Part shown: in pieces, positions 7,114 through 9,267 of the stretch
How the letters are laid out: each line of letters starts with the position of its first letter
Position numbering within the stretch: position 1 is the first letter of the stretch
Origin: an uncultured Candidatus Saccharibacteria bacterium
Lineage (GTDB): Bacteria > Patescibacteriota > Minisyncoccia > Sungbacterales > SURF-37
NCBI GenBank assembly: GCA_964373475.1
Contig: CAYJUX010000001.1
Location: 1-34,511, forward strand
Reading direction: 5' to 3'
Length of the DNA stretch: 34,511 bases
The notes under the pieces: generated by a model
Database searches by the model: none
Seen by the model: only the letters and a program-made list of their open reading frames with translations
Told to the model about the DNA's origin: nothing
Translations under genes and position numbers: made by a program

Positions 7114-7132
7114 ATCGGTCGGTGGATAGTTG

Positions 7133-7172
7133 CCCCTCACCAGTTTCCCGTGCCAAAGAAACTGATGAGGGG
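7133..7172. repeat. Hairpin with family-B-like CCCCTCACC ends
   Basis: cccctcaccagtttc-(10 nt)-gaaactgatgagggg. The ends match the CCCTCACC termini of the elements inside rnpB. Confidence 0.6.
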
Positions 7173-7336
7173 GAGCGATCCGCATCGCTTCACTCGGTTG
7201 TATGGAATTCAATAGCCCCACTGGCTAGTCCAAATACGTAACCCCGTGTTGCTTTTAGGCGCCGGGCAACCGGCTTTTTCATTTGCCGGCCTGCGAGCGC
7301 AAGCCCGTGGCGCCGCGCGAGCAGCTGCCGCAAATG

Positions 7337-7487
7337 AACCCCGCACCAATTTTGCCGGCGCAAAGGGGGCAGCGTGGATGCGCCCTCGCGATCGGCAAAC
7401 TCATGCGAAGCGCGTGGCCGAATAGGCCGTCCCGTTATGGGCGAAGCGCTTCGCCGTGGCATACCTCGCAAAATTGGTGCCGGGGTT
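7337..7487. repeat. Structured palindromic element, family A copy 2 (151 nt)
   Basis: TIR aaccccgcaccaattttgc / gcaaaattggtgccggggtt. Core gcgaagcgcgtggccgaataggccgtcccgttatgggcgaagcgcttcgcc. Confidence 0.85.
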
Positions 7488-7503
7488 TGCTGCAAGAACA
7501 TCC

Positions 7504-8103
7504 ATGAAATTCCTCCTGGGCAGAAAACTTGGCATGACGCAGGTCTTTGACGGCGGGAGCGCTGTTCCGGTCACGCTCATTGAGGCCGGGCCCCTCTCGG
7601 TCATCCGTGAAAAGACCGAAGCCAAGGACGGCTACGCCGCCCTCCAGCTGGGATTTGGCACGCGGAAGACGAAGCGTATCGCCAAACCCCAGCGTGGAGA
7701 GTGGAAAGACCTCCCCGCTTTTGCCGCGGTGCGCGAGGCACGGGGCATGTCCGGCAAGACCAGGGGCGAGACGCTTGACCTCACCCAGTTCCAAACGGGC
7801 GACATCGTGAGCGTCGCCGGTATCTCCAAAGCCAAGGGCTTCCAGGGCGTGGTAAAGCGCCATGGCTTCCACGGCGCGCCGGCCACGCACGGCACCAAGC
7901 ACGCCCACCGCGAGCCGGGCTCCATCGGGCCGACCTGGCCGCAGCGCGTTATCAAGGGGCGGCGCATGGCCGGGCGTATGGGCGGAGAGCGCGTGACGGT
8001 CCGGAATCTGAAGATCGTAAAAATAGACCCGGAGCGGCAGTTAATCGCGCTTGAGGGAGCAGTTCCTGGGAGACGGGGCACGCTCGTTGAGATCAGGGGA
8101 TAG
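7504..8103 (+). CDS. rplC: 50S ribosomal protein L3
   Basis: MKFLLGRKLGMTQVFDGGSAVPVTLIEAGP...; canonical L3 N-terminus at the ATG at 7504. The ORF-track start at 7456 reads through repeat A2. Confidence 0.95.
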   Translation: MKFLLGRKLGMTQVFDGGSAVPVTLIEAGPLSVIREKTEAKDGYAALQLGFGTRKTKRIAKPQRGEWKDLPAFAAVREARGMSGKTRGETLDLTQFQTGDIVSVAGISKAKGFQGVVKRHGFHGAPATHGTKHAHREPGSIGPTWPQRVIKGRRMAGRMGGERVTVRNLKIVKIDPERQLIALEGAVPGRRGTLVEIRG

Positions 8104-8157
8104 GGTCTGCTTGATAGTTTATAAGTTTAAAAGTTTGTAAGTTTATAAGTTCGGGTG

Positions 8158-8230
8158 CTGATCCCGCATCTATATCAATGGTATATACCATTGATATAGA
8201 TGCGAGGGAGTACCTTCTCTGCGGGATCAG
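8158..8230. repeat. Nested palindrome: 38-nt perfect palindrome inside an 11-bp outer inverted repeat
   Basis: gcatctatatcaatggtatataccattgatatagatgc (8166-8203) is perfectly self-complementary. Outer arms are ctgatcccgca and tgcgggatcag. Flanked by AAGTTTRTA-type low-complexity words. Confidence 0.9.
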
Positions 8231-8271
8231 GAGTTAGGGAATAGGTTATAGGGATTTCGGGGCGTCCGAAT

Positions 8272-8302
8272 AAAAAAAACGCCATGACGTTTCGGGTCAT
8301 GG
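8272..8302 (-). terminator. Rho-independent terminator for the antisense gene 8297-8551
   Basis: Minus strand reads ccatgac-ccgaaac-gtcatgg followed by cg + T8. The stem overlaps the stop codon. Confidence 0.6.
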
Positions 8303-8551
8303 CGCCGCGCTGGCACGGCGCGTGCGGTCCTCCTGTCGCATAAGGAGTTCAAGTATGGTTGTTGCGCCGAGGACCGCTTCGGTGCCGAGGTGCCCCTCAA
8401 GACCGATGAGGAAAAGTTTCAGTGCTGGCGTTTCCTCGTCAATCACCGCATGGATCCGCCGTTGAAACCCCGAGGGATCCCTGGTGTACTCTGCGAACTG
8501 TAACAGGCAGAATTCATCAGTCAACTGAGAGAGTAGCTGGCGGGTGTGCAT
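8297..8551 (-). CDS. Hypothetical 84-aa protein encoded antisense to the S10 operon
   Basis: ATG start preceded by GAGGAG 5 nt upstream (rc of ctcctc at 8557-8562), with its own terminator. Predicted helical (MHTRQLLSQLTDEFCLLQFAEY...); no family recognised. Confidence 0.55.
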   Translation of the reverse strand: MHTRQLLSQLTDEFCLLQFAEYTRDPSGFQRRIHAVIDEETPALKLFLIGLEGHLGTEAVLGATTILELLMRQEDRTRRASAAP

Positions 8552-8604
8552 TTTTTCTCCTCAACGGTAACGCGTGCCAATTCGTACTGATACTAATAAT
8601 ACGG

Positions 8605-9267
8605 ATGACAGTGAATGTCAATGTCTATAACCAAGAAGGGAAGGCGGCTGGCACGATGGAACTGCCGGAGGTTTTTAGCTCGCGCTGGAATGCCGACCTG
8701 GTGCATCAGGTGGTGGTGGGCCAGGCGGCCAATCGCCGCCAGAATGTGGCGCATGCCAAAGGCCGCAGTGAGGTATCGGGCGGCGGGCGAAAGCCGTGGC
8801 GCCAGAAGGGGACGGGGCGGGCGCGCCATGGCTCCATCCGTTCTCCCATTTGGAAGGGCGGCGGGGTGACGCATGGCCCCTTAAAGGAAAAGCAATATAA
8901 GAAAAAAATAAACCGGAAAATGGCGGCGCGTGCCTTGGCCCTGGTGCTGGCGGCAAAAGCGCGCGATCAGGAACTGGTGGTGATAGACGGCCTGGCGTTC
9001 TCAAGCGCCAAGACCAAGGAGGCCCTGGGCGTTTTTAAAAACCTTTCCCAAGAGAAGATGCTGGCTGATATCATCGCGAAACCGAAGCGGGCGCTGGTGC
9101 TCCTGCCGGATAGCGGCCAGGAACTGCGGCGCGCGCTCCGGAACATCCCGGCGCTGGAATTGGCGGAGGCCCGGAATGTAACGGCGCTTGATATCATGCA
9201 GAGAAAATATATCGTCCTCCCGAGGCCGAGCGTTGAAATTCTCATCCGGCGCCTTACCCATGTTTAA
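8605..9267 (+). CDS. rplD: 50S ribosomal protein L4
   Basis: MTVNVNVYNQEGKAAGTMELPEVF...GGGRKPWRQKGTGRARHGSIRSPIWKGGGVTHGP; ATG at 8605. Confidence 0.93.
   Translation: MTVNVNVYNQEGKAAGTMELPEVFSSRWNADLVHQVVVGQAANRRQNVAHAKGRSEVSGGGRKPWRQKGTGRARHGSIRSPIWKGGGVTHGPLKEKQYKKKINRKMAARALALVLAAKARDQELVVIDGLAFSSAKTKEALGVFKNLSQEKMLADIIAKPKRALVLLPDSGQELRRALRNIPALELAEARNVTALDIMQRKYIVLPRPSVEILIRRLTHV

Follow-up and report, generated by a model that had tools for sequence, protein, structure and literature searches.

The window, that is, the whole stretch of 34,511 nucleotides (nt) analysed here, comes from an uncultured Candidatus Saccharibacteria bacterium and carries an S10 operon that is opened between rplC and rplD, the genes of ribosomal proteins L3 and L4. 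The genome to which it belongs (G000) is a metagenome assembly of 79 contigs (720 kb, 57.8% G+C content (GC), 95.7% complete). The rplC gene ends at 8103 and the ATG of rplD lies at 8605, leaving a gap of 501 nt (8104-8604), and an earlier reading made from the letters of this DNA alone (hereafter the sequence-only reading) had put the insertion at 500 nt and treated it as one small cassette. We found instead that the spacer is made up of two unrelated layers, a copy of a palindromic repeat and a complete minus-strand unit with an 84-amino-acid (aa) gene, here called ORF84 after its open reading frame (ORF). The features of the locus are as follows.

7504-8103, plus strand: rplC (ribosomal protein L3), an ORF with 65-88% identity to the L3 proteins from 11 relatives in the family; left border of the slot
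8111-8151, no strand: run of five 8-nt words (TTNTAAGT), a single arm of 'TAAGTTnn' word arrays
8158-8230, no strand: nested palindrome with a perfect 40-nt core (8165-8204) and outer 11-nt arms (8158-8168 and 8220-8230)
8272-8306, minus strand: intrinsic terminator of the minus-strand unit, a stem (8306-8278) followed by T8; an orthologous, single-copy feature of the slot
8297-8551, minus strand: ORF84, an 84-aa gene with an ATG start and a stop codon at 8299-8297; member of an all-alpha family
8557-8562, minus strand: Shine-Dalgarno sequence GAGGAG, read from the sequence, 5 nt upstream of the ORF84 ATG
8593-8621, minus strand: candidate ORF84 promoter with -35 TTGACA (8621-8616) in rplD codons, a 17-nt spacer and -10 TATTAG (8598-8593)
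8605-9267, plus strand: rplD (ribosomal protein L4), an ORF without a preceding Shine-Dalgarno sequence; right border of the slot

ORF84 is the sole ORF with a Shine-Dalgarno sequence within the gap. The sequence-only reading had described a self-contained antisense gene of 84 aa inside the S10 operon, with a GAGGAG ribosome-binding site and a stem and T8 terminator overlapping its stop codon, and each of these parts was found as described. The terminator has an 11-bp stem (6 GC pairs), a 7-nt loop and T8, with a folding free energy of -17 kcal/mol, and the stop codon of ORF84 sits inside its stem. Intrinsic (Rho-independent) terminators are recognized as a GC-rich stem-loop followed by a U-tract, which is the form of 8278-8306 with its T8. 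On the plus strand, a terminator scan of the gap found no terminator-like site between rplC and rplD, and an Rfam scan of the gap found no known RNA family. The 5' end of rplD differs from that of its relatives: it reads ATG ACA GTG AAT GTC here and ATG AAT GTC in the relatives, whose ATG aligns with the GTG at 8611 (window 8605-8613). Either a two-codon N-terminal extension arose in this genome, or the GTG at 8611 is the true start.

A phmmer search of ORF84 against 1.84 billion representative sequences gave 11 matches at E <= 1e-3, the best with E = 8.6e-16 and 48% identity over 83 aa, and several of the matches, about 160 aa long, consist of two tandem copies of the domain. A profile search enlarged the family to 24 proteins, none of which has a name or a Pfam domain. 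All seven invariant columns of a 23-sequence alignment (L6, C15, G56, G62, A63, L70 and E74) are retained in ORF84. The GC by codon position of ORF84 is 0.67/0.44/0.65, compared with 0.64/0.45/0.71 for the genes of G000, and its codon score falls inside the range of real genes. The ratio of nonsynonymous to synonymous substitution rates (dN/dS) within the family was 0.19-0.30 in unsaturated pairs and 0.08 for the pair P0004/P0023. These comparisons indicate that ORF84 is a genuine gene and that its family is under purifying selection. In a 79-contig metagenome assembly one could suspect an ORF that is open by chance in a spacer, or a chimeric assembly join, and by our own estimate an open frame of 84 codons has a chance of about 5% per frame at this GC. 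We consider such an artefact extremely unlikely in view of the significant homologs, the conserved residues, the purifying selection and a confident fold prediction; moreover, the left part of the gap (the palindrome by rplC) is matched at the same junction in the sister species G002, and the right part (the terminator towards rplD) is matched at the same junction in the relatives G003 and G005.

AlphaFold2, when supplied with the family alignment, predicted a compact five-helix domain with a predicted local distance difference test (pLDDT) score of 92.3 and a predicted template modelling score of 0.79, and a run with the single sequence was poor (pLDDT 61). The protein had been called unrecognizable from the letters, and our searches bear this out. 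ORF84 matched no family in Pfam, NCBIfam or PHROGs at E <= 10. In PADLOC it had no match either, and two of its homologs had matches at chance level only (E of about 0.03). The best hits of a sequence-profile search of the PDB were unrelated proteins (best E = 0.17), and a Foldseek search with the confident model gave best values of E = 1.9 in the PDB and E = 4 in BFVD. A word-indexed protein search with the single ORF84 sequence returned the query itself only, and it took the exhaustive phmmer search to bring the family to light; a search with an alignment of the two-domain proteins returned its three input members only. In addition, no match was found among GenBank phages by tblastn with ORF84 or with P0016, a member of the phage clade, or among IMG/VR viral contigs with the family profile. 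The models and searches together describe a previously undescribed family, rare and patchy, of predicted five-helix domains of about 80 residues that occur singly or in tandem.

The other layer of the spacer is the palindrome. It folds with a free energy of -46 kcal/mol (z = -6.4), and none of 200 shuffled sequences was equally stable. The sequence-only reading located it correctly at 8158-8230 but gave it a perfect core of 38 nt, which is in fact 40 nt long, and counted it as part of the cassette, which did not hold. The core (TATCAATGGTATATACCATTGATA) is present in 12 copies in G000 and in 11 copies in G002; in 10 further family genomes none was found, and a reversed control pattern gave zero. 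In variant copies the two arms have changed in concert, as in TATCAATAGTATATACTATTGATA and TATCGATGGTATATACCATCGATA. At the same rplC-rplD junction, G002 carries the palindrome without the ORF, in a gap of 72 nt and about 17 nt before the rplD ATG. About five of the G002 copies occupy sites orthologous to G000 copies, and at least five other sites are filled in G002 where the orthologous G000 site is empty, one of them as a clean indel of about 57 nt. Repetitive extragenic palindromic (REP) sequences and miniature inverted-repeat transposable elements (MITEs) are marked by a large number of nearly identical copies between genes and by orthologous sites that may be filled or empty, and both marks were found for the palindrome. 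On this comparison of copies, the palindrome behaves like an independent, small REP/MITE-like insertion limited to this species pair.

The palindrome resembles these elements further in being short, hairpin-forming and symmetric in its variants. It differs from them in several respects: it is AT-rich within a genome of 58% GC, it shows no clear terminal repeats and no consistent target duplication in the alignments of filled and empty sites, and a search of G000 with PF01797 found no Y1 (REP-associated tyrosine, RAYT) transposase, for which reason RAYT-driven mobility was dropped as an explanation. A 15-nt repeat (8091-8105 and 8225-8239) was considered as a target-site duplication and set aside, since at 87% identity it does not stand out from many chance repeats. 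Typical REPs lie after the 3' ends of genes, whereas many copies of the palindrome lie 5-35 nt upstream of start codons, so that a promoter- or operator-like side effect is possible. A classic operator or promoter conserved throughout the family was rejected, because the palindrome is confined to two species and its presence varies from site to site.

A 142-aa gene (C61:1597-2163 in G000; C31, locus L070, in G002) lies between two palindromes in both species, the upstream copy being a variant and the downstream one perfect. Its product, which to the eye resembles a TrpR/YerC-type regulator, is therefore a candidate for the cognate binding protein of the palindrome. The TAAGTTnn words that flank the palindrome on the rplC side form AT-rich arrays in at least seven other spacers of G000 (among them C6:21061-21126, C8:10772-10833, C10:3809-3840, C35:1248-1318 and C62:1644-1659), mostly as inverted pairs with the potential to form long hairpins; the run at 8111-8151 is a single arm. 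Another element, of about 150 nt, stands right after rplC in two relatives of different genera (L011 in G001 and L015 in G005) with 76% identity between them. Its ends are complementary (GGCAAGCGCACGGGCTTTTT ... AAAAGCCCATGCGCCTGCC), which would give a long hairpin or a MITE-like structure, and it is distinct from the G000 palindrome.

The rplC-rplD gap was then compared among genomes of the same order. It measures -7 to 14 nt in 8 of 32 genomes, 68-202 nt in another 8 and 320-879 nt in the remaining 16; two further genomes, in which a contig breaks inside the gap, stand outside this count. The premise that this junction is normally tight therefore fails in this order, where about half of the surveyed genomes have gaps of 300-880 nt with other backward genes. 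In 15 of the 16 large gaps (>=300 nt), a minus-strand ORF begins no more than about 130 nt from rplD, in most cases behind a clear Shine-Dalgarno sequence. Two kinds of occupant recur, and each spans taxonomic families: a hydrophobic, membrane-like protein of about 100 aa (G004, G007, G032 and G044) and a small lipoprotein-like protein ending in '..IPW..' (G003, G008 and G023). The remaining occupants, ORF84 included, are unrelated to these families and to one another. In addition, five genomes of four genera carry in this gap a plus-strand GIY-YIG gene of about 95 aa flanked by inverted repeats of the GTCATTGCGAG type (L013, L014, L016 and L017 in G006, G003, G010 and G011, and L034 in G023; the G006 contig ends inside the gene). 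This survey suggests that the rplC-rplD gap in this order is a long-lived slot for backward small genes whose contents are swapped. As the gaps of relatives already hold other backward genes, ORF84 would be a new occupant of an old slot rather than a fresh interruption of the operon.

The end of the slot towards rplC is marked by the minus-strand terminator. Its hairpin of about 33 nt (AAGCGCCACGACGTTTCGGGTCATGGCGCC) is 88-93% identical in G000, G003 and G005, which represent two genera, and has diverged in G010, of a third genus. When the gaps of the terminator-bearing genomes were aligned, the terminator alone aligned and the ORFs differed. It is single-copy in each genome, which ruled out a dispersed mobile terminator. 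The last five or so codons of ORF84 (..SAAP) and its stop lie within the conserved terminator sequence and do not align to the C-termini of the homologs, from which we infer that the incoming gene was fused to a terminator already resident at the site.

The opposite end of the slot lies in rplD itself. The reverse complement of the rplD codons AAT GTC AA contains TTGACA, and at a distance of 17 nt downstream of this antisense -35 box stands TATAAT in G010 (L016), which makes a perfect promoter; G005 has TAAGAT and G000 has TATTAG in this place. A duplicated rplD start (ATGAATGTCAAGGTCTAC) about 70 nt upstream of the real start supplies the antisense TTGACA for the backward gene of G003 (L014). 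TTGACA-17-TATTAG is the candidate promoter of ORF84, as far as consensus boxes allow. Furthermore, in G000 and in most relatives rplD lacks a Shine-Dalgarno sequence, and an AT-rich box resembling a -10 element stands 3-10 nt ahead of its start, which suggests a separate rplD promoter, possibly with a leaderless mRNA.

A second long spacer lies in the same gene cluster. Between rpsJ and rplC (window 7114-7503) it measures 390 nt here and about 190-770 nt in every family member examined (L011-L021), so in this lineage the S10 cluster is open at two or more junctions.

No ORF84 homolog was found in 60 relatives. Among 401 genomes of Patescibacteria species, G000 gave the sole clear family match and two others were marginal (E of about 1e-4 to 1e-3); intron-borne copies would be under-counted here, since rRNA contigs are often missing from such assemblies. 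The closest homolog, P0002 from groundwater, is antisense in a 23S rRNA insertion beside a LAGLIDADG_2 gene, with true 23S exons on both sides. P0004 sits in non-rRNA sequence near a LAGLIDADG_1 gene, antisense to the 23S exon next to it (model positions 2046-2341), and P0010 is antisense in non-rRNA sequence after about model position 2651 of a 23S gene with a LAGLIDADG_1 insertion; the contigs of both do not contain the far 23S exon. Ordinary chromosomal sites were also found: P0023 adjoins mreC/PBP2, and P0005 adjoins a gene with the anticodon-binding domain of aminoacyl-tRNA synthetases. The contigs come from groundwater and resemble Patescibacteria, and each bacterial homolog on them forms a stand-alone module, with a promoter about 50 nt before its Shine-Dalgarno sequence and ATG, and a hairpin and T-run after its stop. 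The promoters, assigned as consensus matches read from the sequence, scored 12/12 for P0004 and for P0023 (TTGACA-16-TATAAT with TG), 11/12 for P0010 and 9/12 for P0002. With ORF84 included, four of the six single-domain, non-phage members with an examined context are antisense in or beside ribosomal transcription units.

Five further members, closely related to each other, are found in long same-strand arrays of small genes, each directly before an AAA_33 kinase gene. Nearby genes encode HD-domain, phosphoribosyltransferase, RNA ligase, YopX and GIY-YIG proteins, some of which match PHROGs. One two-domain member shares its contig with a large serine recombinase. The contexts are few, and the five phage-like ones represent a single lineage. 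With these contexts, the family appears to travel with mobile DNA, namely 23S intervening sequences, phage-like arrays and a serine-recombinase contig. Of the suggestion that ORF84 belongs to a small mobile or addiction-type cassette, the first half was thus supported, in agreement also with the lack of homologs in the 60 relatives, and the second half was not, as described below. In loci L057-L061, L065 and L066 the family gene is followed by an AAA_33 or polynucleotide-kinase-like gene, with a 4-nt overlap in L060, and the HD-domain, phosphoribosyltransferase and RNA-ligase genes downstream in the phage-like loci look like an RNA-repair neighbourhood. The 5S and 23S genes of G000 itself were located at C9:12238-16000, and its 23S gene is interrupted, with part of the interrupting sequence resembling the L054 insertion that bears a LAGLIDADG gene; no ORF84 homolog was found inside this interrupted region.

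Three homologs in 23S rRNA insertions beside LAGLIDADG genes raise the question of a selfish element. The family could be a new maintenance or homing factor borne by introns or other elements, for example a DNA-binding specificity or helper subunit, that carried itself into rplC-rplD, and a gene of the ORF84 type could occupy the place usual for a homing-endonuclease gene. Single- and tandem-domain forms are known from LAGLIDADG enzymes as well, the host insertion of L054 resembles a neighbouring LAGLIDADG-bearing group I intron, and relatives have GIY-YIG genes in the same rplC-rplD gap. However, ORF84 is an 84-aa all-alpha domain without a nuclease motif, and it matches no homing endonuclease family (LAGLIDADG, GIY-YIG, HNH or His-Cys box) in Pfam and no such fold or profile in the PDB or BFVD. 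Its relatives are always antisense to the intron and have their own promoter, the gene is single-copy in G000 with no homing endonuclease adjoining it, and the group I intron matches around the homologs lie below the Rfam gathering score, with one exception that is about 600 nt from the gene. We therefore give little probability to a self-carried homing or maintenance factor, and equally little to ORF84 standing in the place of a homing endonuclease.

A toxin-antitoxin system, in which ORF84 would be the toxin or the antitoxin and its partner an antisense RNA or a lost gene, would suit a small stand-alone gene on mobile DNA, and convergent transcription could in principle provide an RNA partner. 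It nevertheless appears very unlikely. The cassette contains no second gene with a ribosome-binding site, and no toxin-antitoxin or defence family was matched in Pfam, NCBIfam or PADLOC. The predicted product is a compact, soluble five-helix domain of 84 aa, whereas type I toxins are hydrophobic membrane peptides of usually less than 60 aa. The homologs stand alone or, in the phage-like arrays, beside a kinase gene, and never form a conserved two-gene pair in bacterial contexts.

Taken together, we consider it somewhat probable that ORF84 is a mobile accessory gene which occupies a swappable slot and whose transcription is likely to be coupled to that of its surroundings. According to this model, rplD would start its own transcription unit across the order, and the two ends of the slot, the -35 TTGACA in the rplD codons and the conserved minus-strand terminator, would stay fixed while the content is swapped repeatedly between backward small genes. 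In G000 the incoming gene would have been joined to the resident terminator, which would now supply its last codons and stop. Counted from a start at ATG 8605, the -35 box would fall in rplD codons 3-5, and counted from GTG 8611 in codons 2-3; the DNA would therefore be shared with the rplD promoter region, with ORF84 transcribed divergently from rplD over overlapping promoter DNA. The terminator would shield rplC from antisense transcription. As no plus-strand terminator-like site was found in the gap, read-through from rplC, or transcription from the palindrome if that is a promoter, would run head-on into the ORF84 unit and antisense to its mRNA; the more the ribosomal genes are transcribed, the less ORF84 should then be expressed, and vice versa. 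The same head-on geometry would apply to the three relatives that are antisense in or beside 23S rRNA genes.

Several points weigh against this model. An exact antisense TTGACA is present in the rplD codons of 8 of the 16 large gaps and 1 of the 16 small gaps, an association that is suggestive only, because of the relatedness of the genomes and because TTGACT is frequent in large and small gaps alike; this near-consensus box occurs in many tight-gap genomes. The -10 box of ORF84 (TATTAG) is imperfect, and a promoter scanner made no call there, because position 6 of the box is G. Among the minus-strand ORFs that entered the count for relatives, a few short ones may be spurious. The GC of ORF84 (58%) equals that of the host, so there is no compositional sign of recent transfer. 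What speaks for a separate, possibly leaderless rplD promoter is the missing Shine-Dalgarno sequence and the AT-rich boxes, and what suggests a phage-like nature of the array contigs is their gene arrays and a few PHROG matches. The inverse relation between ORF84 and ribosomal gene expression is entirely inferred.

ORF84 could also be neutral cargo, a real gene at a permissive site whose position and orientation mean nothing, insertions being tolerated because the operon is already split there; it would then have no influence on the transcription of ribosomal genes and would not respond to it. Close relatives do differ in what the gap contains, and within the genus it has shrunk to 72 nt and to 159 nt; the gene cluster is expanded at other junctions as well, and two family members sit in ordinary chromosomal sites (next to mreC/PBP2 and next to the anticodon-binding-domain gene). 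On the other hand, backward orientation is nearly universal among the large gaps, the nucleotide sequence of the terminator persists from genus to genus with different ORFs beside it, and the antisense placement in or beside ribosomal units is shared by four of the six single-domain, non-phage members. We regard neutral cargo as unlikely, though not negligibly so. At the other extreme, the family might be a dedicated cargo of ribosomal units in Patescibacteria, in 23S rRNA intervening sequences as well as in the S10 cluster here, placed head-on with its own promoter, expressed more as ribosomal transcription falls, with a protein acting on ribosome biogenesis or hibernation, or else serving as a new maintenance factor for the insertions. 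This proposal is speculative, and we think it decidedly improbable as it stands.

The swappable slot that we favour can be set beside several known systems. Phage morons are independent promoter-gene-terminator units inserted between operon genes. The ORF84 module is similar in having its predicted promoter, ribosome-binding site and terminator between genes of an essential cluster and in having homologs in phage-like DNA; it differs in being antisense within a chromosomal ribosomal operon, and in that the terminator and the -35 box would belong to the site and not to the gene. PF05635, a protein of intervening sequences in 23S rRNA and a four-helix bundle, is likewise small and all-helical; among the relatives of ORF84, one lies between two 23S exons, two lie in non-rRNA sequence beside a 23S exon and others lie elsewhere, as ORF84 itself does between rplC and rplD. 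ORF84 has five predicted helices and no Foldseek match, its family's genes are antisense to rRNA with strong promoters of their own, and the PF05635 hidden Markov model matched neither ORF84 (E <= 10) nor 23 family members (E <= 1). A survey of rRNA insertions in the candidate phyla radiation (PMC11270868) annotated and counted only ORFs with known Pfam domains, which explains the absence of the ORF84 family from it. Insertions that break a conserved ribosomal gene cluster have been reported, mostly between operons and in Gammaproteobacteria and Bacilli (PMC8046335). As in those cases, accessory genes here stand at a fixed boundary of a ribosomal cluster, with variable contents and constant flanks. 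Here, however, the break lies inside the canonical S10 operon and holds a single backward small gene, together with a terminator that has been conserved and a -35 box that rplD codons form.

Among bacterial operons, S10 is regarded as one of the best conserved, yet it is split at rplC|rplD across an order of ultra-small bacteria. The split appears to be a reusable slot for backward genes whose ends, the -35 box in rplD codons and the terminator, outlast its contents. What is new here is which family occupies the slot and in what contexts it occurs, along with the conserved terminator and the apparent fusion of the ORF to it; the family itself is unannotated, with a confidently predicted fold that matches nothing in the PDB or BFVD. 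Spacers of this kind in Patescibacteria should not be annotated as a single element. If the antisense placement is indeed functional, it would give these bacteria a simple means to express a gene inversely to ribosome synthesis.

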